From: Okamejei kenojei
Taxonomy: Eukaryota
Assembly: GCA_035221665.1 (NCBI GenBank)
Contig: CM069136.1
Location: 47,926,001 to 47,990,000 of the forward strand
Length of the DNA stretch: 64,000 nt
Direction of reading: 5' to 3'
The notes under the pieces were generated by a model, which saw only the letters and a list, made by a program, of their open reading frames with translations, did no database searches and was not told the origin of the DNA. Below, one piece after another: positions 19,586 through 59,435 of this stretch. Positions within the stretch are counted from its first letter, which is position 1. Each line of letters begins with the position of its first letter. The translations under genes and the position numbers were made by a program.

Positions 19586-19751
19586 TATGTTTGGCTGAGT
19601 TTACTTCTGAAATGGTATTGATCTGGCAGGTTACTAATGAAATTTGTGCATTTTGCATCATCACTTGAATGCAGGAGGGGGCAGTGGGTTTTTATTTCAC
19701 CCATATTTACAATGTATGACCTGTTAACGTGTGTTTTTAAATGTCATACAG

Positions 19752-20254: not shown

Positions 20255-20257
20255 AGG

Positions 20258-20263
20258 AATAAA
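20258..20263 (+). terminator. Candidate polyadenylation signal AATAAA just after the CTSC stop
   Basis: The sequence reads TAG-agg-AATAAA. An alternative ATTAAA is at 20736-20741. Usage is unknown. Confidence 0.35.
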
Positions 20264-21294
20264 CACGTTTGCTAAAAGCCAAATTGCAAAAACAGCTATG
20301 ATATTTGATTTTTCATTTCCGATGAAAATTATCTGAATCTTAAATTGAAAAAGCTTTGGCTTTCAAAAATGTTCCATTTTGCTCACTCATCCTTATGTCA
20401 AGGTTAGATGTTATTGTTGATAAAATGCTTTGAATCAACAACTTTGTTTTTGAATCTGTGCAATGATTTAGCTTTATGGAATTCAGTATCATGTTATAAT
20501 GAATAGCATGTTATCCAAATTACTTTTAAACTTTCTTAACATGGCAGTACACTAAAGGTTGGATATAGGCCTTCAAATGATATTTGTATTCCAAAATGTT
20601 TTTTTTCCATAATCTGTGAATTGAGACACAATTGTTAAAACATTTTGTACTTGTATAAGTACAAGTTGTTTAATCAATGCAGTATATGTTGAAAATAATG
20701 TAAATTATCATTTACATGCATGTTATCACCTTAAAATTAAATGAGCTGAAAATCGCTAATTGTGGAACAAATTATAATATTCAAAATTGTAAAATATTAT
20801 TGCCTTAAATCATTGATCCAAATTTCCTCTCCTGGCTTTTAATGGGATGGATTTAGTATGGATGCATCTGCATTTACCAATGCCACTTTTTATAAAGGAC
20901 TCTTATAGTTTTTTAAATCAATTTTGAAGCCTGTATTAGGCTTTTTAAAATATAGCATGGGAATGGTAATATGACGTTTTTTGAAGTTACTTATGATGTT
21001 ATACCTTGCTGGACAAGAGTCTGAATGTATACATATAAAGACTTAATATCCCATGTATGTACTTTATTTTTGCTATTTGTTGTCATCAATGATGCTTGAA
21101 TATTTTGCCAAAGGTTTCTTATTAAAATCTGATCATTACCCAGTGATAAAGCATTGTGTTCATTGACAAGTCTTCTGACCTTGTTGAGGTAATTGAAGTG
21201 ATTGTTCCTTGTTGCTGCTTTACTGACTCTGTCATTTGAGCAGGAAGTCTCTTCCAGGAATGAGCAGTTTAAAGCCAGAATCTGTTTTGTTTTA

Positions 21295-21575
21295 AAAAGG
21301 GACGCGCAGTGCTGGAGAAACTCAGCGGGTAAGGCAGCATCTCTGGAGAGCATGGATAGGTGACACTTTGGGTCGGAACCTTTCTTCACCTGGGGTTAGG
21401 AGAGATAGATGATTGAATGGCAGAGTGGTCTTGATGGGCCACATGGCCTAATTCTGCTCCTATCATTTATGATCTTCACCTATCCATGTTTTCCAGCGAT
21501 GCTACCTGACCAGCTGAGTTACTCCAGCACTTTGTCCTGTTTCGTAAACCAGCATCTGCAATTCCTTGTTTTACA
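21295..21575 (+). mobile_element. Penelope-derived hairpin with a short CR1 3' tail inserted at its apex
   Basis: Inverted arms GCTGGAGAAACTCAGCGGG / GCTGAGTTACTCCAGC surround GATTGAATGGCAGAGTGG...GGCCTAATTCTGCTCC. Confidence 0.7.
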
Positions 21576-22704
21576 TTATCCCATTTGTTATGTTTAATTC
21601 ATTGTGCAATTAATAAGAGCTGCAGATATGTCTGTTAGTGTCTGTGGTTGCAGTTTGTGGAAGGACTGTTGTGCTTTCTGCGAAAGCTTGTCAAATGTGT
21701 TTGTGCACTAGGTAATGGGAGCTGCAAAAAAAAAACTTTGTTAGACTGATCCATGTGAGCTTCCTTCATGTACTATCTATTGGTTTTAATTAATCATCAA
21801 CTTTGCATTTAACACAATTGACAACTTTAATTCAATTTCACAACCATTTGTTTTCTCTTCATTGAACATTTTAACTTTTTTAGATGTCATTTATTCACTT
21901 GTAAATTCAACCATATTTCAGGATGGGCTGTCAAAATACTGTGAAGAGCCAGCAGATGTCAGTGCACTTATTTGCTACAGGTTAAAGACTGGAGTAAAAT
22001 TTCAATTTAAGCCATTCGCAATTCCTTCAACTTTTTAGAAGCTTTCTCATTCCATTACTGGTAAGATTGTTGTGACACCATAGCAGCGTAGTACAGAAAT
22101 GTTGTACTGAGGTCGGCTGAAGGGCATGAAGGAAATGTGATGAATTAGACTGCATATGTTAGTAAGCACATGAAAATTATTACATTCAACCAACAGATCG
22201 TGGATTCCAATATTTTCCTGGATTTTAATTCCCTGTTCATCTTCCGCTGATCGATTCTGTTTCTTGCCATCTCACCCAATGTTCTGCTCCTGCTTCTTTT
22301 CAAACAATGCTATAGTGTTACAATCCCTGTCCCCTCTGATCCTTCATGAAGAAGCCTCGGATTTATTTACTTTGTTTCCCAACCTAATGGATTCTGAGCC
22401 AAGAATGATGTTAAACCAGGCACTCTCCACTCTGTGTGAACAAAAACCTGGCCTGCACATCTCCTTTAAACTTTTTCCACCTCTCACTGTAAAGCTACGC
22501 CCTCTAGTATTTGACTTTTTTCCTTTTAGCTGGGTGCCTTCACTGAAGACTGCCTGCTTCTTCCAGAATTCCAACCACCTTCCCTTGCCCACCACTGCCC
22601 AATTTCTGGCTTCCCTCTAGATCTTTTCATTGCCATTTGATGATGCATGGTTTAGACATGGTGGGTTGAAGGACATGTTCTTGTACTGAAGAACATGTTC
22701 TTGG

Positions 22705-22945
22705 ACCAATGAGTCCGCACCAACCAGCAATCTTTGTACACCAGTACTCTCCTATGCACTTCTTACCAAAACTAATTAACCTACAAACCTGTACGTCTTT
22801 GGGGTGTGGGAGAAACAGAGGTTCACAGGGTCACACAGGTCACAGGAAGAACATACAAACTCCGTAAGCTAGCACCTGTAGTCGAGATCGATCCCGGGTC
22901 TGGCGCTGCATGGCAGCGACTACTGCTGTGCCACCGTGCTGCCCC
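22705..22945 (-). mobile_element. HE1/V-SINE-like SINE
   Basis: Reverse complement of the 14405 element, ending GCCACCGTGCTGCCCC. Confidence 0.8.
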
Positions 22946-24472
22946 GATTATGGTGCGATTTCAGCCACCTGATCTGTGGCTGAAATCCTTTGATGGATTG
23001 AAGATGTGTGTTCATTAGGCCTTTACTGCAAACATTGCTGGGCTAGGTTTAGTATTTATGCAAAAGTTGAAAGGCATAAGGATAGAGTTATGACGAGGAA
23101 AGGATAGGGAACAAAAGAGCAGTGCCGTGTCCAATCCGTAAGCTCCAGCTCAAGTTGGATTGTATGTTGAGGGACGTGCGTGATAGGAGGATCAGCCATA
23201 AACACATTCATGTGCATCAGTGCCTCAGCCCCACTGCTACACTCAAACCATATTATGTTGCAGTTGATGCTGCATGGACTCCTGCAGTCTATTTGTGTTG
23301 CAATGTCCCACATCCATCAGTAAGATTAAGAATCAGAATTTGATTTACAGGTTCTAGTTGGGAAATTAATGGGCCAAGATTCCAGGAGTACGTTCCTGTA
23401 TTTTTCACACTGACAGATCAGACTCCAGGTTCTCACCTCAAAATAAAATAGGATTTCTGATATTTGGCATTTCTTCAATAGATTCTCATGTTATCACAGA
23501 TGAGGAAAGTAATTCAGAGTCTCTTAGTTTATGCTTACCCAAAGAGAGCAAATATTCTCAATAATAAAAGTGAATATGTTACATCCCCCTTAGAATCTTT
23601 CTTCCTTTTTGGAATGAAATGATCCTGCATCTTCCGGATTATGCCCAGAAATTCCTGCCATCATTGTTCCACCATCATTCCTGCTAGGATCCCTTTCCAG
23701 TCTACTTTGGCCAGCTCCTCTCATGCCTTCATAGTCCCTTTTGTTCAACTGCATCACTGACCAGGTTTCTCCTGGATCTGCTGTAAATGCAGCCTTATCT
23801 GTTTCTTCCTCCTAAATCACCTGTGGTATTCAGATCAGGTTAACATTGGTTAACCTCAACAATATGGAAATAGTCTGAATTTTGATGAAAAGGCAAATTG
23901 AAAAGATCATTTTGGACCTCGAGTCCTCGTGCATCACAGGGTGGCACACGTTTTGTTATTTATAAAATTGTCACCCAATTCAACAGCAATCTGCCATCCT
24001 TACTAACATAAAGTTATCCAAATATTGATTGTGTGTCATTAAAGCTAGCTAGTTTGATCTAAACAAGCAAAAATATTATGAAAATATTGAATTCTTTGAT
24101 AAATATAATCTCCATAAACATTAATTGCTGCGGGATTTTCCTGCTGGATTTGATATTAGAGTATGACTGTGAATCAGTGATGCAGTCAATTCTTGCAGCT
24201 GCCTAAAAGACTTACTTCCACCACAAAGATGTTTGTAATTGCCTTAAATCCTGACGAATGATTTAAAACGTGACCTATTATTTCTCCTTTCTTCTTGCGT
24301 ATGCATTCAGATGTGTGCACATTAAACCTGCAAATATTCAGAAGGAAAGTATAAATGCTGTGCATTAAAGCAGCACTTAATTTTGTCAAACTGAATGATT
24401 CAGTCAACAGGATCCTTTGGGTGAGGAATTCTGCACATATAATGACTGTTTATATTCTATCTGAAAGTATAA

Positions 24473-25078
24473 TGGGCCTGTCCCTCTTAGGCGATTTTTT
24501 TCGGGTGACTGTCAAGTCGAGTGGGACACAGACACAGAGACACCTTCCTTCCTTCACCAGCCCATAATGCAGGTGGAGGGTGCGATGTTTGTGTAAAATT
24601 CACACGGTGTAAAGCCAATGTGATACAGACACACATTGTGATGAACAGGAAGGGTGGCGCTGTGTTCGACGGTGAAAGCACAGTGTACGGGAAGGGTCAT
24701 GTAAGTCCTTTAAGAGAGGGGGGAGAAGGAGTGGAGACAACTTTTAAGAAGCCAGAAATACACGGCTGTGAAGCTTGGCAGACATTATGTTATCCTTGGT
24801 TCTGAAAACTACTGCTTACGTTTTTTTTTCCCAATGAGCCAATAAAATTCACTGGTCAGCACCGGCTACAACCTACGAGAACCTTCGACCTCCTGGCGAC
24901 CCGACTACAGCACGAGAATTCTCGCTACTCTCCATGGCGACCATGATGAAGCCGCGACTAGTTCCCAGAATGCGGGGAGTCTTCACGACCATGAAGGCGA
25001 CTCCCCGGCAACATGTGGCGACCACGTTGCCACCGCATAGTCTCCTGCAGTCGCCTAAAATGTCACCTAAGTGGCCCA
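24473..25078. mobile_element. PIF/Harbinger-type MITE
   Basis: Left TGGGCCTGTCCCTCTTAGGCGA; right TCACCTAAGTGGCCCA (partly deleted). TAA on both flanks (24470-24472, 25079-25081). Confidence 0.7.
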
Positions 25079-25534
25079 TAACACATAGAATTTGGGAAGG
25101 ATAAGGAAATTCAATCACTCTATAGCAGATGTTCTGGAACAGCAGAAGAGGCAGCTTTTTATTGTGTGGCTTGTGTAGTGTTAGGTGGCTTTTATTTTGC
25201 AGTAAAATAAAAGTAACATTGTAATGCAAGATCTGATCTTCCTGCAGAACCCTGAGCTGCAGGATCGCTCAGGTTTTCTGTCTAGCATTTTGAAAGTGGA
25301 ATAAAAAGATAATGCAACGCTGAGCCATATTTAAAAGTTAAACTCAGATCTATTTTTTTAAACTATTAAATCAAATGCTCTTACTCGTGGTCCAAAACAT
25401 TTCACGTTTTGGCAGCTCAGAATAAGGTTTTCAGTTTTGTACTTTGCTACTGGAACTGTTAATTGTTTCTGTGACCTTTAGAGCCTGAGATACTGAATTT
25501 ACAATCTCTTGTTCGAAAACTTCGATGCTATGAG

Positions 25535-26407
25535 AATGCAGGTTGACTTGGACAGGTTGGGGGAGTGGGCGGAAGCATAGCAGATGACGTTTAATGTTGA
25601 GAAATGTGAGGTTATCCATTTTGGTAGCAAAAACAGGAAGGCAGATTACTATCTAAATGGCATCAAGTTGTGAAAAGGGGAAGTACAACGAGATCTGGGG
25701 GTCCTTGTTCATCAGTCTATGAAAGTAAGCATGCAGGTACAGCAGGCAGTGAAGAAAGCGAATGGCATGTTGGCCTTTATAACAAGAGGAGTCGAGTATA
25801 GGAGCAAATAGGACGTTCTGCAGTTGTACAGAGCCCTAGTGAGACCACATCTGGAGTATTGTGTGCAAGTTTTGTCCCCTAATTTGAGGAATGACATTCT
25901 TGCCATTGAGGGAGTGCAGCATAAGTTTACAAGGTTAATTCACGGGATGGCTGGACTGTCATATGCTGAGAGAATGAAGCAGCTGGGCTTGTACACTCTG
26001 GAGTTTAGAAAGATGAGAGGGGACCTTGTTGAAACATATTAGATTGTTAAGGGTTTGGACACGCTGGAGGCAGGAAACATGTTCCCGATGTTGGGGGAGT
26101 CCAGAACCAGGGGCCACAGTTTAAGAATAAGGGGTAAGCCATTTAGACGGAGACAGGGAAACACTTTTTCTCACAGAGAGTTGTGAGTGTGTGAATTCTC
26201 TGCCTTAGAGGGCGGTGGAGGCAGGTCACTGGATGCTTGCAAGAGAGAGCTGGATAGGGCTCTTAACGATTGTGGAGTCAGGGGATATGGGGAAAAGGTA
26301 GGAACGGGGTACTGATTGGGGATGATCAGCCACGATCATATTGAATGGCGTTGCTGGCTCGAAGGGCTGAATGGCCTACTCCTGCACCTATTGTCTATTG
26401 TCTATTG
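25535..26407 (+). mobile_element. 5'-truncated CR1 LINE
   Basis: YRALVRPHLEYCVQ peptide and a (CTATTGT)n tail. Same subfamily as 1-667. Confidence 0.9.
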
Positions 26408-27344
26408 GTGACAGTAGCAATATACAAAATCCTCAGTATTCATAAAGAAATCAGGTCAAGTTACTCTGCTGCACCAATTGAATAAATGTATTGGTATTTG
26501 GAAAAACTAAGGAATATAAATAGATCCAGCCTCATAATTACATTGACATTAATTTATCTGCTATTTCACTATAATTACATGATAAGCGATAGTCATAGTA
26601 CAACTGTCTTCATATATGTGGAATGCGAACTCACTATTGATGTATTTTGCCATAGCATAATGTTGAAGCCATAATTCAAATGATTATCTTGATATATCTT
26701 TTGGGTTTTGTTTTTTGCTCATTAATTATACTATTATTAAGTTAGCCAAACCCAGGCTATGTTAATAAATTGTAAAATGTGACGCTGCTGTAATTTTCAT
26801 AATACTGTCCTTATAACAAAAATGATGACGTTGCAATAAATAATCTAACATGAAACTGCCATGGTTTTTACAATTATCCAGATCCCTTCCTCTCAGTATA
26901 TGGTAGCACTACTTGCAGCGTCAATACCATTTGCAAGTGAGGCAATGGGAGAATGGAGCAAAAATGGCATATTGCATCAGACCTGCCTGTTGGATGAAAA
27001 ATGGAGGGATCAGATGTAATCTGGATTCACAGAATACTGATCTTTACCCTCTATTGAAAGTGTAGAAATAATACACTGGTGGCGTCTCTCACTAACTCCT
27101 TAATTAACATTGGTGCTTCCCAAATCTTTTGATTTAATTGTAAGAGCTGTCTTATTTCCTGTATTTAATAGTAATGTGGAACGAAACCTTGCTCCACTAG
27201 ATGTATATTATGAGACATGGTAATTCCAATGTCAGTTCAACATCTCCCAACTCTTTGTCGTTGACGACCAGTTTCTATTACATTCCTGCCCACTAATCCT
27301 TTCCAATATCCTGTCACAATGTGCAATTCAAATTATTTTTGGAG

Positions 27345-27550
27345 CAAAATTAGGCCATTTGGCTAAGTAAGTCTGCTCCACCATTTGACCATGGCTGCTC
27401 TATCCCTCCCTCCTAACCCCATCATCCCACCTTCTCTCCATAACTTCTGACACCGTACTAATTAAGAATCTAGCTATCTCTGCCTTAAAAATATCCACTG
27501 ACTGCCTTCACAGCCTCTGTGGCAAAGAATTCCACAGATTCTCCACCTGA
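27345..27550 (-). mobile_element. CR1 3' end
   Basis: Reverse complement of the CR1 3' UTR (GGCCATTTGGC...CCATGGCTG...GAATTCCACAGATTC). Confidence 0.7.
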
Positions 27551-28121
27551 GTAAAAAGGGTATTAAGGGATTACAGTTATTAACGTATGAGTTAAATTTG
27601 GATTGATCAGAGAAAGAATATGAGTTGATTAGAAACATTGACGTTGTAAAAGGTGTTTTTTTTTTCGGACAGGACCATGGAAGGAAACTGTGTGGGCGTG
27701 AAAAACCATGGAAAAGAAATGACCATGGGTACAATTTCTATTGGATTGCAACCAGCTTTCTACAGGAGACAATGCAAGAAGTTGAAAGGTTTTTGGTTAC
27801 TATAAATTACAAGTTCTGAAGTTGGGGCACTAATTGGGATTGGGGTTAGTTGGGACAGTATCAGTATTTGAATAACTGGCGAGGAAATTAATCATATCTT
27901 TGTCATCATCTCTCAGGAACAATTCTTAAGGATTTAAATTGCCGATCTATATTTAGTGGCATCGAACTAAATTAGGAAAGTACAGCCATTAATTAACTAC
28001 GCTGCAATTTTAAGTGTCTACTTTCTGAGAAGATAATATTCTCGTAGAACTGACTGAGAAGCAATGGAGGCAAAAATATTAATTCAGATATGACATTTCT
28101 ACAAAGCTGCCCCATTCTCTA

Positions 28122-28305
28122 CTACGTGGAGGGAATGGACAGGCGAAGTTTTGGATCGTTCCCTTCTTCGGACTCATCAGTCCGAGGAGGGGTCCCGACC
28201 CGAAACATCGCTTGTCCATTCCCTCCACATATGCTGCCTGACCCACTGAGTTAATCCAGCATTTCGTGTTTTGTTCAGGATTCAAGCATCTCCAGTTCCT
28301 CGTGC
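28122..28305 (+). mobile_element. Degenerate Penelope hairpin about 440 bp upstream of the RAB38 ATG
   Basis: AGTCCGAGGAGGGGTCCCGACCCGAAACATCGC (mutated hammerhead) with partial inverted arms. Confidence 0.7.
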
Positions 28306-28379
28306 CTCCCATCTCTGTTACACTCACTCTTATGTCTCCACCTCATTATTCTACTCACTGTGGTCGAGTTTAAAGTCTG

Positions 28380-28740
28380 ACTGAATAAGTCTCACGCATT
28401 GGGCCGTAGGTGAAAGAAAGTAAACTTTTGTTGGGTGAAAGAAAGTAAACTTGAAAGGTCAACGTGATTGAGGGAAAACTACTGAACTACAATCAAAGTA
28501 TCCCCAGCCACCAGAGAGTTGACCTACCACCACATTCTCAGCATAGCAGCACGTCGGGATGATGAGGCCAGGACGGTCCGTGGCGTGAGAATGACTTGTG
28601 GGGTTGTGCTTATATTCACGCTAGCAGAGCAAATCCCGCTGTAAGCCTGGGCGAGGGTCCCTGTGATTTACAGTCGCGGCTGCTGGTTTCACTTGAAGAG
28701 CTGTGCACGGCGGGTTTTGTATGACCCTGCAGTTTCGAAA
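28380..28740 (+). promoter_or_regulatory. Probable RAB38 proximal promoter / 5' UTR
   Basis: Non-repetitive, CpG-enriched stretch directly upstream of the ATG. It contains a 19-bp direct repeat GGTGAAAGAAAGTAAACTT (28409-28427, 28434-28452). The TSS cannot be determined from sequence. Confidence 0.45.
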
Positions 28741-28942
28741 ATGCAGAGAAGTCAGACTGAGCATCTCTATAAAATTTTAGTCGTCGGCGACCTGGGAGTA
28801 GGAAAGACCAGTATCATAAAACGTTACGTACATCAAAACTTTTCCCAACATTATCGAGCTACCATAGGCGTGGATTTCGCTCTCAAAGTTATCCACTGGG
28901 ATTCGGACACTGTGGTTCGGCTGCAGTTATGGGATATCGCCG
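28741..28942 (+). CDS. RAB38: Ras-related protein Rab-38, coding exon 1
   Basis: MQRSQTEHLYKILVVGDLGVGKTSIIKRYVHQNFSQHYRATIGVDFALKV...LQLWDIAG. Contains the P-loop and the WDIAG motif of the Rab32/38/29 group. 202 bp, donor GTAAG, downstream of CTSC as in human. Confidence 0.95.
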
Positions 28943-29890: not shown

Positions 29891-32800
29891 ATAATTTGTT
29901 TCCATTTTAGCTACGTGCACATCACAAAAAGGAATAAAAAAATAACTGTATTCAGTTTGCTTAATTGCCCTTAATGCCATAGGTTTCTATCTAATGAACA
30001 AGGTTTTTGAGGAAGCCGCTGATTGGTGGGAAGTGGACTAGGGTAAGCAGCTGATTGGTGGGAAGTGGACTAGGGTAAGCAGCTGATTGGCAGTCAGATT
30101 CCAGCAGTTTGTTGTGTACTTTGTATTGTGTTGATATTGTATCCTGTGTAAGGGGGGAGTATGAAGGTCAGGGCAGTGTACTGTTGTGGATGTCAGATGT
30201 GGGAGGTCAGGGAATCTGATAGCCCTCCAGACGTCCACATCTGCGCCAGGTGTGTCGAGATGGGGCTCCTAAAGGACTGTGTTAGGAATCTGGAGCAGCA
30301 GCTCGATGACCTCCGTCTGATCAGGGAGAGTGAGGAGGTCATAGAGAGGAGCTACAGGGAGGTAGTCACTCCCAGACCTCAGGAGGCAGACAAGTGGGTC
30401 ACGGTTAGGAAGGGCAAGGGGCAGAGGCAGGGGCTAGAGAGTACCCCTGTGACCGTACACCTGGAAAATAGGTACTCGGGTTTGAGTACGATTGGAGGGG
30501 ACAGCCTACCTGGGGGCAGCAACAGCGGTCGGGTCTCCGGCACAGAGACCGGCCCTGATGCTCAGAAGGGTAGCAAAAAGAGGAGGGCAATTGTAATAGG
30601 GGACTCTATAGTTAGGGGGTCGGATGGGCGATTCTGTGGACGCAGCGGGGAGACCCGGATGGTCGTTTGCCTCCCTGGTGCCAGGGTCTCGCATGTGTTG
30701 GAATGTGTCCAAAAGATTCTGAAAAAGGAGGGCGTGGAGCCTGATGTTGTGGTACACATAGGTACCAATGACATAGGCAGAAAAAGAGACGAGGTCCTGA
30801 AGGGAGAATTTAGGGAGTTGGGGGGGAAAGTTAAGGAGAAGGACCAAAAGGGTAACAATTTCAGGATTACTGCCTGTGCCGCGTGACAGTGAGAGTAGGA
30901 ATGGAATGAGGTGGAGGATAAATGCGTGGCTGAGGGACTGGTGCAGTGGGCATGGATTCAAGTTTATTGATCACTGGGACCTCTTTTGGGGAGGGCATGA
31001 TCTGTACAAAAAGGACGGGTTGCACTTGAACCCAAGGGGGACCAATATCCTGGCAGGGAGATTTGCAAAGGCTACTGGGGAGACTTTAAACTAGAAAGGC
31101 TGGGGGGAGGGACTCGGGTAGAGGGGGTTAGGGGACAGTGTGTGGGGCAACAGGCAGAGAAGGGAAGCACTCGGACCCAAAATGTAGGCGAGCAAGAGGA
31201 AAAAGATAATAGACAGAGAATAAGGGATGGTGGGTTTCTAAAATGTGTATATTTTTATGCTAGGAGCATTGTAAGAAACGTGGAGGAACTTAGAGCCTGG
31301 ATTGACACCTGGAAATATGATGTTGTGGCAATCAGTGAAACATGGTTGCAGGAGGGCTGTGATTGGAAACTAAATATTCCAGGATTTCGTTGCTTCAGGT
31401 GTGATAGAATTGGAGGGACCAGAGGTGGAGGTGTTGCATTGCTTGTCAGAGAAGATATTACAGCAGTGCTTTGGCAGGATAGATTAGAGGGCTCGTCTAG
31501 GGAGGCTATTTGGGTGGAACTGAGAAATGGGAATGGTGTAGCAACACTTTTAGGGGTGTATTATAGACCGCCAAATGGGGAGCGAGAATTGGAAGAGCAA
31601 ATATGCAAGAAGATAGCAGATATTAGTATTAAGCACAAGGTAGTGATTGTGGGAGATTTCAATTTTCCAAAAATAGACTGGGAAACACATTCTGTAAATG
31701 GGCTGGATGGTTTGGAGTTTGTAAAATGTGTGAAGGATAATTTTTTGCAGCAGTACATATAGGTATCGACCAGAGAAGGGGCAGTGCTGGACCTCCTGTT
31801 AGGAAATGAGGCAGGTCAGGTGACGGAGGTATGCGTTGGTGAGCACTTCAGGACCAGTGATCACAATACCATTAGTTTCAATATAATTATGGAGAGAGTC
31901 AGAACTGGACCTAGGGTGGAGATTTTTGATTGGAGAAAGGCTAACTTTGAAGGAATGCGTAAGGATTTAAAAGGAGTGAATTGGGACACTTTGTTTTATG
32001 GGAAGGATGTAGAAGAGAAATTGAGGACATTTAAAGGGGAAATTGTAAGAGTACAGAATCTTTATGTCCCTGTTAGGTTGAAAGGAAATAATAAAAATTG
32101 GAAAGAGCCATGGTTTTCAAGGGAAATTGGACACTTGTTTTGAAAAAAGACAGATATCTACAATAATTATAGGAGGCATGGAGTAAATGAGGTGGTAGAG
32201 GAGTATAAAGAATTTAAAAGGAATCTTAAGAAAGAAATTAGGAAGGCTAAAAGAAGATATGAGGTTGCTTTGACAAGAAAGGTGAAAGTAAATCCAAAGG
32301 GTTTCTGCAGCTATATTAATAGCAAAAGGATAACAAGGAATAAAATTGGACCATTAAAGAGCCAGAATGGACAGCTATCTGCAGAGCCAAAAGAGATGGG
32401 GGAGATATTCAACAATTTATTTTCTTCGGTATTCACCAAGGAGAAGGATATTGAACTCTGTGAGGTAAAGGAAAAAAAGTAGAGTAGCTATGGAAACTAT
32501 GAGATTCAAAGAGGAGGAAGTACTGACACTTTTGAAAAATATAAAAGTGGATAAGTCTCCAGGTCCTGACAGGATATTCCCTAGGACATTGAGGGAAGTT
32601 AGTGTTGAAATAGCAGGAGCTATGACAGAAATATTTCAAATGTCATTAGAAACGGGAATAGTGCCGGAGGATTGGCGTACTGCGCATGTTGTTCCATTGT
32701 TTAAAAAGGGTTCAAAGAATAAACCTAGCAATTATAGACCTGTTAGTTTGACGTCAGTGGTGGGCAAATTAATGGAAAGGATACAGAGATTATATATATA

Positions 32801-33979
32801 AGCATCTGGATAAACAGGGTCTGATCAGGAACAGTCAACATGGATTTGTGCCTGGAAGTCATGTTTGACAAACCTTCTTGAATTTTGTGAAGCGGTTACT
32901 AGGGAAATTGATGAGGGTAAAGCAGTGGATGTTGTCTATATGGATTTCAGTAAGGCCTTTGACAAGGTTCCCCATGGAAGGTTGGTTAAGAATGTTCAAT
33001 CTTTGGGTGTTAATGGCAGAGTAGCAAGATGGTTTCAACAGTGGCTGAATGGGAGATGTCAGAGAGTAATGGTGGATGGCTGTTTGTCAGGTTGGAAGCC
33101 GGTGACCAGTGGGGTACCTCAGGGATCTGTGTTGGGTCCACTGTTGTTTGTCATGTACATCAATGATCTGGATGATGGGGTGGAAAATTGGATAAGTAAG
33201 TATGCAGATGATACTAAGATAGGTGGTGTTGTGGATAATGAAGTAGATTTTCAAAGTCTACAGAGAGATTTGGGCCATTTGGAAAAGTGGGCTGAAAGAT
33301 GGCAGATGGAGTTTAATGCTGTTAAGTGTGAAGTGCTACATCTTGGCAGGACAAATCAAAATAGGACGTACATGGTAAATGGTAGGGAATTGAGGAATGC
33401 TGTGGAACAGAGAGATCTAGGAATAACTGTGCATAGTTCCCTGAAGGTGGAATCGCATGTAGATAGGGTGGTAAAGAAAGCTTTTGGTGTGCTGGCCTTT
33501 ATAAATCAGAGCATTGAATATAGGAGTAGGGAAGTAATGTTAAAATTGTACAAGGCATTGGTAAGACCAATTCTGGAGTATGGTGTACAATTTTGGGCGC
33601 CTAATTATAGGAAGGATGTCAACAAAATAGAGAGAGTACAGAGGAGATTTACTAGAATGTTGCCTGGGTTCCAGCAACTATGTTACAGAGAAAGGTTGAA
33701 CAAGTTAGGTCTTTAGTCTTTGGAGCGCGGAAGGTTAAGGGGGGACTTGATTGAGGTCTTTAAAATGATGAAAGGGATAGACAGAGTTGACGTGGATAAG
33801 CTTTTCCCATTGAGGGTAGGAAAGATTCAAACAAGAGGCATGACACGAGAATTAAGGGACAGAAGTTTAGGGGTAACGTGAGGGGGAACTTCTTTACTCA
33901 GAGGGTGGTGGCTGTGTGGAATGAGCTTCCAGCAGAAGTGGTGGAGCCAGGATCGATTTTAACATTTAAAAGTAAAGTG

Positions 33980-35967
33980 AATAAATTAAATAAGAACATT
34001 TTATTTTGGAAAACTCTATCCATCTCAATGCTAGGTAAAATTAATATAATAAAAATGATTTTTCTTCCACAATCTTTTCCAATTGATTCCGATATATCTT
34101 CCTAAAAATTTCTTTAGGAAGGTGGACTCTTTAGTTACCAACTTTATCTGGGATTATAAGAGCCATAGAATAAATAAAAAACATTTATGTAAATCAAAAC
34201 TATATTGGTCTCGCACTACCAAACTTTATGTTTTATTACTGGGCAGTTAATATTAAAAATATGAATTTTTGGTTAGTAGAGACAGATAAACAACCACTTT
34301 GGTTAAAAATGGAAAAAGAAGATTGTTCGCCTTTTGAAATTAGTTCGATAATATTTGCTAATATTAATCTAGGTAAGAAAACCTATAGCGAAAACCCTAT
34401 AATAGAAAGTGGAATACGTATCTGGAAACAAATAAAGAAAACATTAAAATTGGAATGTATACCACTAGCCCTTACCATTGTAAATAATGTTACATTTAAA
34501 CCCTCAATGATGGATAAAGGGTTTTTACAATGGAAAAATAAGGGAATTTATAAGACGGGAGATCTCTACAGGGAAAATTCTTTCCTTTCATTTCAAGAAT
34601 TACAACAAATTTATGGATTACATTCAAAAGATTATTTTAGATACCTACAAATTATTGACTATGTAAAAGCCAACACACAGGAAATTAGAAATAGAAAGAC
34701 AGAAATTTTAGATGAATGTCTAAATAAACATCCGAACACAGAACAATTGATATCATATATTTATAATATTCTATTGGAAAATGATGTCCCATTGATAGAA
34801 ATATATAGATAAACATGGGAAAACGAATTAGGTCAAATTATTAGACCAGAAGTATGGGATGAAAGTTTACAACATATACACCACTGTTCGTTAAATGCTA
34901 GACACTCTCTTATACAATTTAAAATATTACATAGACTACATTACACAAAATCCAAACTACAAAGAGGGCATGACATGAGAATTAAGGGACAGAGGTTTCG
35001 GGGTAACGTGAGGGGGAACTTCTTTACTCAGAGGGTGGTGGCTGTGTGGAATCAGCTTCCAGCAGAAGTGGTGGAGGCAGGATCGATTTTAACATTTAAG
35101 AGTAAAGTGGATAGGTATATGGACGTGAAGGGAATGGAGGGGTATGGTCTGAGTGCAGGTAGATGGGACTAGGGGAAAACAAATGGTCGGCACGGACTGG
35201 AAGGGCCGAGAGGGCCTGTTTCCGTGCTGTAATTGTTATATGGTTATATGGTTATATGGTTACATAACATTTTTTCAAATGTCTCTGCCAAATGTGATAA
35301 ATGTCAGCACTTAGAAACTAACTTGACACACTCATTTACAAATTGTGTAAAAATTACAAAATTTTGGATAGAAATATTTAGGATAATTTCGAATGTTGTT
35401 AATATGAATCTGACTCCTGACTCAAAGTTAATAATACTGGGAATACTGGAAACAGATCAATTAATAACAATGAATCAAAGAATTTTTATTGATTATAGTT
35501 TAATAATTGGGAAAAAAACTAATATTAAAATTCTGGAAAGGTCCTACATCCCCCACAATCAAAATGTGGATTACAGGAATGTCGGAGACACTCCATCTGG
35601 AAAGATTGAGGCTTGTCCTAATGGACAGGTTGGATCTTTTCAGAGGAATATGGTCTCCATACATTGAATATCTAAAGGGTCAAAATGGCTCGGTGCGAGA
35701 GCCTGACTGAAACCTGAATAATGGAATAGATGAAGAAATACGTAGAACAAATCATGGATATATCTCCAACGACAGATAACTTTTTAATACTCCATTCACT
35801 TCTTTATTTTTGATTTCTTATCTCTATATTATTTTTCTCTATCTTTTCTTATAAAAAAAAAGTATAGAAATATAAATGTCTTAAATGTTAATATTAATAA
35901 TATTATGAATGTATGTAAGAAGTATTTTCTATTAATATGTATTTACAATTAATAAAAATATTAATCT
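33980..35967 (+). mobile_element. 5'-truncated L1-clade LINE inserted in the CR1
   Basis: Peptides SMLGKINIIKM, FYYWA, QFKILHRLH, CDKC...NLTH (L1 ORF2 C-terminus). A-rich end. TSD AAAAGTAAAGTG (33968-33979, 35968-35979) at a TTT/AAAA site. Confidence 0.85.
34961..35261 (+). mobile_element. CR1 3' end nested in the L1
   Basis: Near-identical to 33833-33979 plus 35980-36114, with a (GTTATATG)3 tail. Confidence 0.88.
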
Positions 35968-36503
35968 AAAAGTAAAGTGGATAGGTATATGGATGGGAAG
36001 GGAATGGAGGGGTATGGTCTGAGTGCAGGTAGATGGGACTAGGGGAAAACAAATGGTCGGCACCGACTGGAAGGGCAGAGAGGGCCAGTTTCCGTGCTGT
36101 AATTGTTATATGGTTAAATGGTTCTTGCTTGACCTTTGTAAAATTCATGCATAACACAGATGATTGGGTTTGTAATTGTGGCATCATCAAATAATTCTTT
36201 GATCTAACGACGTGGAATCTTTTATGCTCGATGTATTATTTGAAATATATAGTTCAGTAGTTATGTTTTTGTCACATGTACCCAGATACAGCGAAATGCT
36301 TTGTTTTGCATACAATTCAGTAGAATCATACCACGCCTAAACACAATCATACATAAGTAAAATAATGCAACAATAGTAGTTGAAATAAATAGTAGATTTC
36401 TTCACACAAATAATGCTACGATTCTGGCACTATCTTGTAGCTTCCAAGTATGAAGCTTTTCAAAAAGTCTTATTTTGGCCTTAAAGCCCAATTAACTATA
36501 GTT

Positions 36504-39315: not shown

Positions 39316-40009
39316 TGTACACTGTGTGGACGTTGGTCAATAAGAGACTGAAGTGAATGTTAAAGTGATGGTGACAGAGTTAAGTTGATTAAAGAAAAGA
39401 AAGATGGGCATGGTTTGTGCAGATGTAGAATGTGGGACCCATTGCAAACACATCTTCAGCATGTATCTGCAATGCGAGCAACTGTGGATCAGAAATGATG
39501 AGATGGGGAATGAAATTCAGACATTGCATTACATCAGAGGGGGGAGGGGGGGGGGGGGGGGGGGGGGGGAGATTCACGCACATTCCAAAGGCAATTACAC
39601 TCCTTAGGTTATGTAGTACAGGTCTTATTATCAAGAAGATCAGGAAAATCTAACGACAAATGAGGGGCATGGATATCCAGAAGGTTACATTGCAGCAACT
39701 TCAGGAATTGCACTTATCCAGTGCTTACAAAGTTATTGGTGTGGATGAGAATAGACATTGCAGCGTCGATGAGTGAATTAACCAAAGTACCATGGTACAG
39801 GAAGCCATTCAAGGTATGACATTGATGTGAACCTAGCAGCAAAGGGAATGGTATAATTAAGAAGGTAGATACTGCTCTTTGCAGTGTCGAATGTGAGTTG
39901 CAAAGACTCATGTCTGCTCGGCACCATCTCTTTTGGGCTGGAGATTAACTTGGAACAGTAGTGGCAAGATTGAATTTATTTGTTCCACATGGGAACCATG
40001 GCATAGATC

Positions 40010-40494
40010 CAGGGGCGGAAATCCTGCGGGGGGGGGGGGGGCATGGGGGACTCGTCCCCCCCTAATTTGAGAGGGGGGGACGATTCCTCCCCCCCCCCCC
40101 CCCCATGTTTTGTAATCCGGACTTTATCAGCCGCTTTCTAAGGGCTGAATCGACCCATTCGCAAGGCCTTTCAGCACCCAGCGTGGCTTAAAATCAAACT
40201 GCTGCATCGAGGCGATCGAGGCTCCCGATGTTGAAGCCCCCGCCGGCCGATGAAAGACCCCGTGAACGGGCCGATTCAAGCCCCATGATCCGGGGCGGAC
40301 GAAGCTGCTGTTGCTGCAGTTTGGAGTCGGTCACCAACCAGGTCAGCTCCCGATGTTACCGTCGACAGGGCCCAAGGCCGATGCCTCGCGCGTGTGCACA
40401 TGGGTGTGCGTGCGCATGTGTGTGTGCACATGCGCTCGTGGGGCTGCCAAGAAATTGTGTCCCCTGCATGTTTTGATAGCGATTTCCATGCCTG
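40010..40494. mobile_element. hAT-type MITE
   Basis: Left CAGGGGCGGAAATC; right reverse complement CAGGCATGGAAATC. 8-bp TSD CATA(G/A)ATC (40002-40009, 40495-40502). Confidence 0.78.
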
Positions 40495-40748
40495 CATAAA
40501 TCCAAACGGTTCAAAGGTATTTTATTGCCACGTGTATCAATTAAGGTACAGTGAAACTCGATTTACCGTACAGTCATACTAAAAATGGCAACAAGACACA
40601 CAACTACATAAAAGTTAACATTCCTCACTGTGATGGAAGGATAAAAAGGGAAATTCTGCTGAAGGAATACAAGCAATCAAGATCCAAATATTTAAAAAAT
40701 AACCACAAAGGTGATAATCTCTCAATTACTGCCAGAGGCACCACCTGA

Positions 40749-41210
40749 AAATTGGTGCTGGGTAAATCAGATTAGGGAATTTAGTGTGTGGTTTCAAGTT
40801 TGGTGTGGGAAAAATTTATTGCAGTTCAAGGGCCACTAACAGCAGTCCTAGGGAAAGGGAGTGTTATTCCTTTGATTTGCCTTCATGTGAATCAAGCAAG
40901 AGTCATCGTAAAAATGAATAATTAAGACTACCGTATATATATGTTAAAGACTATAGTCTATTTTACAAAACAGTAGAGGATGATTTTTGGTAAGGAGAAA
41001 TTTTGTAAATTCTAGAGAAAAAGATATAGCCACTATACAAGGCAGGAAAATGTATTGTCCACATTTTCCTGCCATGTTTAAAATCAAAGGGATAACAACC
41101 CCTTTCCCTAGTACTGCTGTTGGTGGCCCATGAACTGCAATCAATTTCTTCCACACCAAACTTCCAACCACACATTAAGTTTCCTGATCTGACTTACCCC
41201 GCACCAATTT
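40749..41210. repeat. Diverged inverted repeat with ~130-bp arms (MITE-like)
   Basis: 40749-40878 is the diverged reverse complement of 41081-41210, separated by an AT-rich spacer. Confidence 0.8.
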
Positions 41211-48632: not shown

Positions 48633-49381
48633 AATGGTAGGGAACTGTGGAACAGAGGGATCTAGGAATAACTGTGCATAGTTCCCTGAAGGTGGAATCG
48701 CATGTAGATAGGGTGGTAAAGAAAGCCTTTGGTGTGCTGGCCTTTATAAATCAGAGCATTGAATATAAGAGTAGGGAAGTAATGTTAAAATTGTACAAGG
48801 CATTGGTAAGACCAATTCTGGAGTATGGTGTACAATTTTGGTCGCCTAGTTATAGGAAGGATGTCAACAAAATAGAGAGAGTACAGAGGAGATTTACTAG
48901 AATGTTGCCAGGGTTCCAGCAACTATGTTACAGAGAAAGGTTGAACAAGTTAGGTCTTTATTCTTTGGAGCGCAGAAGGTTAAGGGGGGACTTGATTGAG
49001 GTCTTTAAAATGATGAAAGGGATAGACAGAGTTGACGTGGATAAGCTTTTCCCATTGAGGGTAGGGAAGATTCAAACAAGAGGGCATGACATGAGAATTA
49101 AGGGACAGAAGTTTAGGGGTAACGTGAGGGGGAACTTCTTTACTCAGAGGGTGGTGGCTGTGTGAATGAGCTTCCAGCAGAGGTGGTGGAGGCAGGATCG
49201 ATTTTAACATTTAAAAGTAAAGTGGATAGGTATATGGACGTGAAGGGAATGGAGGGGTATGGTCTAAGTGCAGGTAGATGGGACTAGGGGAAAACAAATG
49301 GTCGGCACGGACTGGAAGGGCCGAGAGGGCCTGTCTCCGTGCTGTAATTGTTATATGGTTATATGGTTATATGGTTATATG
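48633..49381 (+). mobile_element. 5'-truncated CR1, same subfamily as the 30-36 kb copy
   Basis: The 172-aa ORF is nearly identical to 33400-33930, with a (GTTATATG)n tail. Confidence 0.92.
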
Positions 49382-51030: not shown

Positions 51031-51435
51031 GCCCTTTGGCCCAACTTGCCCACACCGACCAACTAGTCCCACCCGCCAGCATTTGGCCCATATCCCTCTA
51101 AACCTGTCCTATCCATATACCTGTCGAACTGGTTCTTAAATGTTGGCATAGTCCCAGCCTCAACTACTTTCTCTGGCAGCTTGTTCCATACATCCACCAC
51201 ACTTGGAGTGAAAAAGTTACCACTCAGATATTAATGTTTTTTTTTTTAATTGCCATCCTCTCTGCTGCCCCTGCTGGTGGGAGGGGGCGGAACTATAAAC
51301 CCCGGAAGTGGTGTGCCTCACTCAGTCTCTGCAAGATGGAGGAAGCCAGAGAGTCACGTCTCTCTGAGCTCTGAATAACACTGAACACATGTCTACTCAA
51401 CTGTGAGTGCCCTTAATGTGTTTGAAAATGAAAAT

Positions 51436-51945
51436 ATGGTTGGTTTCAAGTAAAAAGGCACTGCATGCAAATGGTTGTTTGGGGGGTTTGGGTTGAAGTA
51501 AAAAGGCATTGCATGCAAATGGTGGTTTGGGTTGAAGTAAAAAGGCACTGCATGCAAATGGGTTGTTTGGGGGGTTTGGGTTGAAGTAAAAAGGCACTGC
51601 ATGCAAATAGTTGTTTGGGGGGTTTGGGTTGAAGTAAAAAGGCACTGCACGCAAATGGTTGTTTGATGGGGTTTGGGTTGAAGTAAAAAGGCACTGCATG
51701 CAAATGGTTGTTTGAGGGGTTTAGGTTGAAGTAAAAAGGCACTACATGCAAATAGTTGTTTGGGGGGTTTGGGTTGAAGTAAAAAGGCACTGCATGCAAA
51801 TGGTTGTTTGATGGGGTTTGGGTTGACGTAAAAAGGCACTGCATGCAAATGGTTGTTTGGGGGGTTTGGGTTGAAGTGAAAAGGCACTGCAAAGGGTTGC
51901 TTGGGGGTTTTGGGTTGAAGTGAAAAGGCACTGCAGATGGTTGTT
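51436..51945. repeat. Minisatellite, ~48-bp unit, about 10-11 copies
   Basis: Unit GTTGAAGTAAAAAGGCACTGCATGCAAATGGTTGTTTGGGGGGTTTGG. Confidence 0.95.
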
Positions 51946-52263
51946 TGTCCAAACTTGACAACTTCCTTGTTGCACTATATTGATTTTAGATAAAACGCTA
52001 CCACTTACGGGTGTGATTTTTGGCCATCTCAGTGTTATTAGTGTTTAAAAAATGTTGAGAATCTCTCTCCTGTCAATCACGCCATGAAGGCCACACCTTT
52101 CCGGTGGGAGGGTGAGGGATTATAAAACCGGGAAGTGTGGGTGTGGCTCAGTCTCTACATGATGGGGGAGGGAGAGGTCACGATTGTCTGAGCTGTGAAT
52201 CAACTGCACACTGAATGTCTACTGAACTGTGAGTGTGGTGTTTTGCGTGGTTTTATGATGGTT

Positions 52264-52570
52264 TCACCCTGCTTGAAATAGTATGAAACTGCATTTCAAT
52301 GTGGTGGCCTTGCACCTTGCATGAAATGGTATGAAACTGCATTTGAATGTGGTGGCCTTGCACCCTCCTTGAAATGGTATGAAACTGCACTTGTATTTGG
52401 TGGCCTTGCACCCTGCTTGAAGTGGTAGGAAACTGAACCTGAATTTGGTGGCCTTGCACCCTGCTTGAAGTGGTATGAAACTGCACTTGAATTTTGTGGC
52501 CTTGCACCCTGCTCGAAGAGGTAGGAAAATGGATTTGAATTTGGTGGCCTTGCACCCTGCTTGAAATGGA
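52264..52570. repeat. Minisatellite, 48-bp unit, about 6 copies
   Basis: Unit CACCCTGCTTGAAATGGTATGAAACTGCATTTGAATGTGGTGGCCTTG. Confidence 0.95.
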
Positions 52571-54154
52571 ATTTCAATGAATAGCCATGAGTCATCTGCC
52601 AGCCCACCAGCTGTGAGTGAGCTGCCAGCACATCAGGCTTGAGGGACTGAGCTGCAACCCCAAGAATCCATTTGGCCCACAATGTCCATACTAGCCCTCT
52701 GGAGACCAGTAGTCCCTGCAGCCAACAACACCCATATCAGCGCTCCAGAAACCCCCCCCCCCCTCACTGTCCACCAATATTGGAATTGGTGAAAAGGTGG
52801 AATATTGCGTCGGGGGACCAGCCCTCCCATGTGAACATGGGTCCCAACGGGTCCCACTTAGTCTAGTATACCTCTATAAGCACCCCTCGTCCAGGTCATT
52901 CCTTCTTCTCCTTGCTCCCATTGGGCAGAAAATACAGCCGCTTGACACCGCATACCATCAGACTCAGGAACAGCTTCTTTCCCTCTATTATCAGACCTCT
53001 GAAGGATCCTTCCCTAATCTAGGGCACAGGTCTGATTCTCCGTTCTATCTCACTGTGGACATTGGATTTTTTCTCTGGAACTGTTACGCTACAATGCTGA
53101 GAAGTATGTTCTACATTCTGGTATCTTTCTCTTCACTCTGCCTTTTGAACTTGTTTTTGGCTTGATTATATTCATGTGTAGTATTATCTAATTTGATTGG
53201 ATAGCATGCAAACAAAGGCTTTTCACTGTGCCTCGGTACACGTGACGGTAATAAGCCTAAATCTATAGAGTTCAGCATTGCAGTGATTTTGCAGAGAATT
53301 GGTGTGAAACCACCATGGTGCCTAATTCTTTCACATTGTCCACCTAAATGTTCTGCTTTGTAGAACTAACCCAGTGTGCACAAATGCCTTTCTTCTCTGA
53401 TCTCCTACAAGGTCGAGATGCAAATCGTGAAGAGAGGAATTGTGGAGACGTTCGGGAGAAAGGATGAGAAATTGATGAGGGTAGGGGTATTGGAATGAGA
53501 TCTGGAGAGTTAGGGGACAGGAGACTGAAGAGGAAATATTTACTGTTGATAATTGAAATTGAAATTAGGGACAGAATCGCTGAGGTGAAGAAAGATGTGT
53601 GGAGAAAAGATTGAGGAGTTTGCTATGGGGAAAGTTGGTGTGATTGGGCTGGGGGAAGATGATGGAGGGGATTGAGATAATCAAGTAGTAATCTATTGAA
53701 TTACCATAGCTGCTCCAGGAATTATTATTCTCTCCTTAATGGAAAAGCTTATCCTTTCAAGTATCCTTTCATGCAAGGAATTAGGTTTCCTTCATGCCAC
53801 ACTGCAAGTGATGCTGCTTGCATACTTGTAAGTAGATGTGCTGTTCATCTTCAAATTGTTTTGATGCTTACGTTGGCAATTTTATTTTTCCTTTTACATT
53901 CTACTCAAACTTATTTGTCGATCGGCGATGGAAAAGTTGCTAAATGTCAACACTATTTGAAATGCAATTTGTTATTTAAAACCTTATATTAGTAAAAAGT
54001 GCTTTAATGTATTTAATAGCAGTAACGGAGCAGTTTTTTTTTAATAACAAATGGGCTTTAAAACAATAATAAGCAATTTGATCTTATCAATCCACTGTAT
54101 GTAAATAAAGCAACTATGAACTTTTTTTGGAAGAAAAGCTATTTTTATTAATTT

Positions 54155-56265: not shown

Positions 56266-56546
56266 GTCAAGAACGATTTGGGAACATGACAAGAGTATAT
56301 TACAGAGAAGCCATTGGAGCTTTCATAGTGTTTGATGTGACACGAGCCTCAACATTCGAAGCAGTGTCAAAATGGAAGGATGATTTAGACTCAAAACTGA
56401 CTCTCCCCAATGGCAAACCTGTCTCTGTTGTCTTGCTGGCAAACAAATGTGATCAAGAGGGTGAGTTCTTATCTGCCAATCCTGGAAAAATGGAACAGTT
56501 CTGCAAGGATCATGGATTTATCAGCTGCTTTGAAACTTCAGCAAAG
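56266..56546 (+). CDS. RAB38: Rab-38 coding exon 2 (exon 3 lies beyond the window)
   Basis: Acceptor cttctgcAG, donor GTAAA. 281 bp encoding (G)QERFGNMTRVYYREAIGAFIVFDVTR...LLANKCD...FETSAK. Phase matches exon 1. Confidence 0.95.
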
Positions 56547-57574: not shown

Positions 57575-59435
57575 AACAGGAAGGCAGATTATTATCTGAA
57601 TGGTGTCAGATTAGGAAAAGGGGAAGTGCATCAAGACCTGGGTGTGCTTGTACATCAATCACTGAAAGTAAGCATGCAGGTACAGAGGGCAGTGAAAAAA
57701 TCTAATGGCATGTTGCCTTTCATTGCGAGAGGATTTGAGTTTAGGAGCAAGGAGGTCCTACTGCAGTTCTACAGGACCCTGGTGAGACCGCACCTGGAGT
57801 ACAGTGTGTAATTTTGGTCTCCTAATTTGAGGAAGAACATTGTTGCAATTGAGGGAGTACAGCGTAGATTCACCAGGTAACTTCCCGGGATGGCGGGACA
57901 GTACCCGGACGTGGCGCCGATGGATGGGAAGTGAAGCAAAGAAGTGGAAGCCAAATAACCAAATGGAAACAAAGCCGAAATGGCAAACAACCAAATGGAA
58001 ACTAAGCCGAAACGCCAACTAACCGAAAGGACGGTAAGCCTAAAAGCCAACTAACCGAAAGGCTGCGTCGCCTAAAAGCAAACTCATTGAATGGCTGCTC
58101 TGCCGAAATGCCACCTATCCGAAAGCACAACCCTCAGGACAGCTCCCTCTCTCCCACGGCCACGACTGCCCATCCGCCTCATCTCCCCCCGCACTGTGAT
58201 GGGCTGTGGGTTGGGTGGAGCAGAGGTGTGGGACAGGTTGGGCATTCCGCCCATGTAGAGTCACTTACCGCCATCGGACCCCCGCCCCCCGGCACCGTCA
58301 TGTCCGTTATTTTACTTTTCTGTTGAGCGGCATTCAGTTCGTTGGCTTGTAGGTGACGCCGCCTTTCGGGTAGGTGGTGTTTTGGTAGAGTGGCCATTCA
58401 GTTAGTTTGCATTTAAGCAGCCCACCCTTTTGGTTAGTTGGCGTTTCGGCTTCATTTCCATTTGGTTAGTTGGCGTTTCGGCTTAGTTTCCTTTTGGTTA
58501 TTTGGCGTTTCGGCTTTGTTTCCTTTTGGTTATTTGGCTTCCACCTTTTTGCTTCGGCTTCCCATCCATCGGCGCCACGTCCGCACACGGGCTGGGACTG
58601 AAATATGATGAAAGAACGGGTTGACTGGGCTTGTATTTACAGGAATTTAGAAGGATGAGAGGGGATCATAGCATCTTTGCAAGGGCCAGAAAGCGAGCGG
58701 GCAAGATCATCTCTGACCCCTCTCACCCTGGCCACAAACTCTTTGAATCACTTCCCTCCGGATTGTCAAAGCTGCCACAGCCAGATATAAAAACAGTTTT
58801 TATCCACGAGTAGTTGCTCTACTCAACAGCCAAAAATCTGTAGCGTCCCCTTGATCTGGGATTTTGTTGGTTCACATGCTAGATCAATGGTGTTTTATCA
58901 TTAATGTTTTACTATATTGATGTTTAGTGTTTTCTGAGTCATTCATAACTGTCACTGTATGTCATGTTGTCACTTGTGTGCAGAGCACCAAGGCAAATTC
59001 CTTGTATGTGAATACTTGGGCAATAAACGTACTTACTTATTTATATAAAATTCTTAAAGGATTGGAAAGGCTAGATGTAGGAAAAATGTTCCCGATGTTG
59101 GGTGAGTCCAGAACTAGGGGTTACAGTTTAAGAATAACGGGCAGGCCATTTAGGACTGAGATGAGGAAATTCACCTAGAGTGTTGTGAATCTGTGGAATT
59201 CTCTGCCACAGAAAGCAGTGGAGGCTAATTCACTGGATGTTTTCAAGAGAGAGTTAGATTTAGCTCTTAGGACTAAAGGAACCAAGGGATATAGGGAAAA
59301 GGCAGGAACAGGGTACTGATTTTTAATGATCAGCCATGATCATATTGAATGGTGGTGCTGGCTCCAAGGGCAAAATAGCTTATTCCTGCACCTATTTTTC
59401 TATTTTTCTATGTTTCTATGTTTTTATGTTTCTAT
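57575..59435 (+). mobile_element. CR1 3' fragment interrupted by a foldback MITE and a Rex1/Babar-like 3' end (about 58668-59040)
   Basis: DLGVLVHQSLKV...LVRPHLEY peptide. The CR1 resumes after each insert and ends in a (TTTCTATG)n tail. Confidence 0.8.
57900..58590. mobile_element. Foldback/MITE-type element with long TIRs and subterminal tandem repeats
   Basis: CGGACGTGGCGCCGATGGATGGGAAG at left and its reverse complement at 58560-58583. The arms are built of CCGAAA/CCAACTAACC repeats. A related terminus starts at 63841. Confidence 0.8.

Follow-up and report, generated by a model that had tools for sequence, protein, structure and literature searches.

The repeat block at 51276-52866, which lies within intron 1 of the RAB38 gene of Okamejei kenojei, is best explained, on balance, as a fossil non-autonomous Helitron. 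It appears to consist of two related subfamily left halves on one right end, each carrying what would be its parent's own promoter, first exon and splice donor. The block had been described in an initial annotation as a Helitron-like element with two cassettes, each made of a promoter, a mini-exon and a donor. Two homologous motif sets are present in the sequence, but rather than two cassettes they probably represent related left halves that share a single right end.

The window (the whole 64,000-nucleotide stretch of DNA that was analysed) is vertebrate DNA and contains many pieces of CR1-type LINEs. RAB38 is encoded on its plus strand. Coding exon 1 (28741..28942) runs from the P-loop to WDIAG and ends in a phase 1 donor, and exon 2 (56266..56546) is 91% identical to zebra shark RAB38 and contains an internal Met at 56286. 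The candidate donors of modules 1 and 2 lie 4.9 kb and 4.0 kb, respectively, from the start of exon 2 at 56266, in agreement with the earlier placement of the modules 4-5 kb upstream of the exon 2 acceptor. RAB38 exon 1 is preceded on the same strand, at a distance of about 8.5 kb (window 19680-28942), by a last exon (near 19680-20251) that we take, from its type of sequence, to be cathepsin C-like, a neighbourhood that presumably corresponds to the mammalian arrangement. In zebra shark, the annotated RAB38 isoform X2 (P0002) has an alternative N-terminus that joins exon 2 in phase 1; this N-terminus has no resemblance to either module.

Several other repeats accompany the block. A near-complete CR1 LINE in the sense orientation occupies 30013-34000 in RAB38 intron 1, and its 5′ region includes a 32-nt tandem repeat present 2.4 times. 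CR1 3′ pieces at 33400-36135 and 48645-49381, located 15.2 kb apart and carrying GTTATATG tails, share 97-98% identity; they would belong to a young subfamily or stem from a local duplication of recent date. In RAB38 intron 2, a MITE-like element (57907-58584) is found inside a CR1 fragment; its long inverted arms (57933-58125 and 58363-58555) are 84% complementary and consist of 32-nt tandem units, and its core is GC-rich. Another inverted-repeat element at 40749-41210, with arms of 130 nt that are 87% complementary and spaced by 202 nt, lies near a CpG-rich stretch (40001-40500). Finally, a 159-aa open frame at 11652-12236 gives a weak match to the hAT dimerisation domain (E 8e-4, below Pfam's cut-off) and is likely a hAT transposase relic.

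Module 1 (51276..51409) and module 2 (52103..52235) are both oriented on the plus strand. Module 1 comprises a putative promoter, a putative exon and a candidate donor at 51402/51403, and module 2 comprises candidate promoter motifs, a putative exon and a candidate donor at 52228/52229. Both putative exons measure 79 nt from the A of the Inr to the donor. All the motifs previously listed for the two modules are found at their reported positions. In module 1, the GC box GGGGCGG at 51284 is followed by TATAAA at 51294, the ETS motif CCGGAAGT at 51302, the Inr-like TCAGT at 51322 with its A at 51324 (+30 from the TATA), the YY1-like CAAGATGG at 51332, ATGTCTACT at 51389 and the donor-like GTGAGT at 51403. 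Module 2 has TATAAA at 52121, the ETS motif GGAAGT at 52131, TCAGT at 52148 with its A at 52150 (+29), ATGTCTACT at 52215 and GTGAGT at 52229; in this copy, neither the GC box (5/7 matches to module 1) nor CAAGATGG (7/8 matches) is intact. Overall, the modules are 78% identical across 137 columns (E 8e-22).

A composite pattern in which TATA, GGAAG and an Inr placed at 28-32 nt precede a donor of the form GTRAGT, designed after the motifs had been seen, has two matches on the plus strand of the window and none on the minus strand. Simulated order-2 Markov sequence totalling 6.0 Mb contains the loose form a single time, which corresponds to 0.011 per 64-kb strand, and does not contain the strict form. 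The combination of TATA, ETS, Inr and donor is far beyond chance for a pattern chosen post hoc, and its two matches count as one event because the modules are homologous. The candidate donors are unremarkable, with 6/9 matches to U1 that are equalled by 171 of the 1600 GT sites in RAB38 intron 1. A third GTGAGT is found at 52613, within a stretch (52570-52640) that weakly resembles the end of the mini-exon and is possibly an old internal duplication.

On both sides, the block is bordered by a CR1-type LINE fragment on the minus strand. The left host flank (51063..51227) aligns with the window's CR1 at 1274-1119 (77%, 159 nt), and the host CR1 resumes at 52867..52888 (89.7%, 29 columns, window 1019-992, E 8e-4), so that the match stops at reference position 1119 on the left and continues near 1016 on the right. 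Next to the left flank is an unassigned T-rich linker (51228..51275), which resembles the sequence upstream of module 2 only weakly (a similarity matched by 45 of 2000 shuffles). At this linker, ~100 nt of host CR1 and the repeat's left end are missing and would have been removed by a deletion. Module 1 is followed on the plus strand by minisatellite 1 (51440..51947), a 48-nt unit repeated 10.5 times, and then by the unique 5′ part of the second repeat (51948..52102), for which no terminal TC is established. Module 2 is followed by minisatellite 2 (52265..52569, plus strand), which has a different 48-nt unit in 6.4 copies. The two units agree at 22 of 48 positions (1988 of 20000 shuffles as good), and their best 28-nt window is equalled by 4 of 300 shuffles.

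The block terminates in a Helitron-type right end (52838..52866, plus strand). Here a 19-nt hairpin at 52838-52856, with an 8-bp stem and one mismatch, precedes CTAG at 52863-52866, providing a 3′ CTRR with a short hairpin before it. The base after CTAG is a T, exactly where CR1 resumes, and the reference CR1 has an A before that T, as would be expected of an insertion at an A/T site. The left junction of the insertion is deleted, and the exact right junction is inferred because TCTA (52862-52865) also fits the reference CR1 copy. The hairpin is not the minimum-energy fold, folding of the 81-nt end region is no stronger than that of shuffled sequence (z -0.81), and the pattern of hairpin, CTAG and T has one other occurrence on the two strands of the window. 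Neither half shows a 5′ TC end in this copy, where both left ends look truncated, and the family's loose ends, limited to 30 letters, stop short of a terminus. Terminal inverted repeats are absent from the 25 longest of the 215 inverted pairs in the window, in a copy that is missing its left end. Protein searches found neither an autonomous element nor a link to a Rep-helicase, and four scans of microbial DNA collections, which carry no weight for a vertebrate repeat, gave 0 loci; P0122 and P0123 are unrelated repetitive proteins. A small RNA (snoRNA or snRNA) was also considered and rejected, with 0 Rfam matches at the gathering score in the window. The description of the block as Helitron-like is supported by its right end, with the hairpin, CTAG and T at an A/T site of the CR1 fragment, and by its high copy number, but the searches recovered no 5′ TC end or autonomous partner. 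The block is likely a rolling-circle (Helitron) transposon.

Module 2 belongs to a dispersed multicopy family. Contigs from 4 of 24 sequencing runs were placed, at 80% likeness, on 51936-52290, a region of 355 bases that covers module 2 and part of the sequence upstream. DNA run X2, of which ~92% was covered, supplies 6,438 of these contigs, and the other three runs supply 357, 100 and 37; three organisms are represented overall. Contig depth is no measure of copy number, but thousands of distinct contigs nevertheless indicate an abundant family. Depth per bin follows the DNA run (Spearman 0.70-0.89), and contig depth cannot rank the parts of the region. A further copy lies on an unrelated 4.8-kb contig, whose predicted protein P0121 runs collinear with 52048-52735 across the module, the donor and the array. 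Relative to the family, this copy carries an internal deletion at 52029/52031, supported by loose ends behind 52029 in runs X16 and X2 and before 52031-52034 in all four runs. Judging from the loose ends, the family sequence lost at 52029-52034 includes an AATAAA ~90 nt upstream of the TATA. It may be speculated that loss of this sense poly(A) signal made the intronic copy better tolerated.

The letters of the family bring the two modules closer to each other. A C at 52130, found in 88% of the depth, restores CCGGAAGT in module 2, and a G at 52157 (99.5%) together with an A at 52160 (59%) restores CAAGATGG. Within 40 of the 83 variant rows, at least 8 of the 23 substitutions between the modules correspond to letters present in at least 15% of the module 2 family depth. 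Since family letters pull module 2 toward module 1, both appear to descend from one sequence. The family also has indels at 52183-52184 and 52206, donor-less variants in which 52181-52183 are joined straight to the second array, and variants that skip the promoter.

The proposal that the motifs were kept while their flanks diverged holds between the two modules but not for the ETS core among family copies. In the observed letters, 36 of 40 motif columns are kept compared with 71 of 97 elsewhere (block-permutation p ~0.02, post hoc and for one pair). With module 2 represented by family-majority letters, the counts are 39 of 40 and 74 of 97 (p ~0.002, again post hoc and for one pair). The effect survives the removal of both end motifs and suggests selection on the motifs while the subfamilies diverged. 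In 28% of the DNA depth of the module 2 family, the ETS core has its first G, which belongs to a CpG, replaced by A and is thereby lost. Two CpGs outside the motifs are changed at a similar level (26% and 22%) and three other CpG positions at only 1-5%, so CpG decay is not uniform. Loss of the ETS site, together with the variants lacking a donor or a promoter, would fit passive decay after insertion.

The first ATG of module 1 is at 51336, inside CAAGATGG, in a strong context with A at -3 and G at +4; its counterparts in module 2 are at 52159/52162. ATGTCTACT is not the first ATG in either mini-exon. Read from 51336 or from 52159/52162, the frame reaches the donor in phase 1, the phase of RAB38 intron 1, and an in-frame TGA closes it at 51372-74 in module 1, after 12 codons, and at 52189-91 in module 2, after 10 codons from 52159. 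The initial annotation correctly considered the ATGTCTACT start, which is in phase 2, to be out of frame with RAB38 exon 2, but overlooked the phase 1 ATG upstream. Its conclusion that the products would be non-productive or truncated stands nonetheless, with that upstream ATG stopped by TGA in both mini-exons. Because the first ATG meets a TGA and ATGTCTACT is out of frame, a transcript spliced to exon 2 would contain a short upstream frame. Decay or a restart at Met 56286 with loss of the P-loop would be expected to follow. Any product would be a peptide of 10-12 codons or a RAB38 that begins at Met 56286 and has no P-loop, and RAB38 initiated at either putative module would likely yield no working protein. 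A conserved coding role of the modules is rejected on account of the stops in both, the family indels and the lack of protein relatives; a search with the module 1 frame, which is a weak test, returned 0 of 13 candidates at E<=10.

If the block carries the promoter of its own transposon, the autonomous parents would have used a TATA/ETS/Inr/YY1 promoter that starts a transcript ~200 nt from the left end. The resulting ~80-nt exon would have been spliced across the minisatellite to a Rep-helicase gene, and the cassette is on the strand that such a gene would use. A need for Rep-helicase expression is proposed as the reason why TATA, ETS, Inr and donor were kept in two subfamilies that are ~20% diverged. 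In non-autonomous derivatives, the gene would have been lost and the cassette would have spread passively. The two halves could have been fused when one element, having lost its terminator, ended instead at the right terminus of a copy next to it, through end bypass or adjacent insertion; alternatively, two elements may have been joined by a deletion. Once inserted, copies would likely be eroded by way of CpG methylation. The copy in RAB38 intron 1 could splice its cassette to exon 2, with a first ATG that would meet the TGA of the mini-exon. As no autonomous element or Rep-helicase was found, the argument for such a promoter is drawn solely from position, orientation and conservation. The idea that Helraiser circles need a promoter has no support in the available portion of PMC5876387.

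The main rival to this reading concerns the origin of the cassette. The same Helitron may instead have captured the promoter, coding first exon and intron start of a host gene, as HelibatN3 did with NUBPL, and become amplified since promoter-bearing elements spread better; this is possible, but we consider it less likely. It would account for the GC box, the ETS site and the YY1 site that overlaps a strong-context ATG 12 nt past the start. Such features are typical of housekeeping genes. The phase 1 distance from ATG to donor in both modules also speaks for capture, although two modules would agree in phase by chance about 1 time in 9, and the indels at 52183-52184 and 52206 and the in-frame stops leave no kept reading frame. 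There is precedent in bats, whose Helitrons have captured the promoters of 15 genes and in which such elements are present at higher copy numbers (PMC4224331), but the frame of module 1 gave no protein relative in the weak search described above. It is quite doubtful that the repeat represents another kind of dispersed element, such as the decayed 5′ region of a retroelement or a derivative of a cut-and-paste transposon, with a CTAG borrowed from the CR1 flank. The match of TCTA to the reference CR1 and the missing 5′ TC end and transposase link would allow it, but the hairpin is at the distance expected from CTAG, exactly where CR1 resumes at an A/T site, neither inverted ends nor a poly(A) tail are visible, and the module has no match to the 5′ region of the window's CR1. 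It is barely credible that one ancestral sequence contained these motifs by chance and was later duplicated. The motifs were chosen post hoc and represent a single independent event, and a 64-kb strand is expected to contain 9.8 cases of TATA with a loose Inr, a common combination. Against this, ~0.01 or fewer occurrences of the full set are expected on such a strand, and motif columns are conserved better than others.

Two further readings concern the present activity of the cassette. It is improbable that this copy now works as an alternative RAB38 promoter and produces transcripts that join the mini-exon to exon 2. Module 1 has all its motifs intact and in the sense direction, an acceptor of compatible phase lies 4.9 kb away, and HelibatN3 does act in this way in HeLa cells (PMC4778049). 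On the other side are the stops in both mini-exons and donors of ordinary strength. Mini-exon words precede QERF in 0 of the 120 RAB38/RAB32-like proteins listed (61-195 aa) out of 288 found. Of 46 transcripts predicted in bats, only 3 truly have their start in a Helitron insertion (PMC4778049). Contigs from runs X16 (probably DNA), X17 and X18 (both guessed to be RNA) bear on this question for the module 2 region (51936-52290). The start site of module 2 is bridged, with at least 31 letters on each side, by 2 of the 8 contigs listed for X17 and 2 of the 8 listed for X18; that is, they would represent read-through or DNA. The donor is bridged with 31 letters on each side by one of the 24 contigs listed for the three runs, which comes from X16, and two X18 contigs continue past it into family-like unspliced sequence. 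There is no loose end at 52228 among 24 of the 308 loose-end rows. A broader and also unlikely reading, if somewhat less so, holds that cartilaginous fishes harbour an undescribed Helitron family through which a selected TATA/ETS/Inr/YY1 promoter, together with a phase 1 first exon and donor, has been dispersed in thousands of copies. These copies would form a genome-wide exon trap with alternative starts for many host genes, RAB38 included, and selection on the non-autonomous elements themselves would maintain the function of the promoter. If true, this would be a fish counterpart of the bat HelibatN3.

Whether its promoter was its own or captured, the proposed Helitron relic has parallels among described elements, compared here with the available portions of the cited reports. 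HelibatN3 brings with it the promoter of NUBPL along with six codons and a donor, and it acts as an exon trap in cells (PMC4778049); the relic may work, or may once have worked, along the same lines. Like HelibatN3 and other promoter-capturing Helitrons of vesper bats, the present element is non-autonomous and combines, here at the level of motifs, a promoter, a short first exon with an ATG and a donor in the orientation of the element. High copy number is also shared, as is the potential of intronic copies to trap downstream exons (PMC4778049, PMC4224331). It differs in that the donor gene of HelibatN3 is known to be NUBPL and its exon trapping has been demonstrated, whereas motifs alone are seen here. 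The present cassette is also doubled, with a 48-nt minisatellite after each copy, and it is found in a cartilaginous fish. With canonical Helitrons (HLE1) the block shares the 3′ hairpin and CTRR, and it may share the A/T insertion and the lack of inverted ends, but this copy shows no 5′ TC and no Rep-helicase partner was found for it (PMC11417382). In Helraiser, the palindrome measures 19 bp and lies 11 nt from the CTAG end, with an A/T target (PMC4778049); the hairpin seen here measures 19 nt and stops 10 nt from the end.

Composite Helitrons and double left ends have also been described (PMC4224331, PMC11417382, PMC4778049). HelibatN539 (PMC4224331) and HelenXT233, which has LTS1 and LTS2 (PMC11417382), likewise join two related 5′ parts to one 3′ end; HelenXT233 differs as an autonomous member of HLE2 (PMC11417382). 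The composite described here may have moved as a unit or have been assembled at this locus. Tandem arrays fill much of the non-autonomous Heli2Xen element of Xenopus as well, which has a 166-bp unit and belongs to the Helitron2 group, in contrast to the 48-nt units found here (PMC12001565). No description of this family was found in the accessible literature, including PMC9605692 and the searchable supplements of PMC10115646; Repbase or Dfam may hold it.

The modules are likely a real transposon relic and a further case of the promoter-carrying Helitrons known from bats. The relic points to an abundant Helitron-like family of cartilaginous fishes, equipped with a compact textbook core promoter and a donor and comprising natural variants that differ in the presence of the ETS site or the donor. 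Such a family would serve as a test set for whether rolling-circle transposons have seeded alternative promoters outside bats, and for whether a promoter helps non-autonomous Helitrons to spread.
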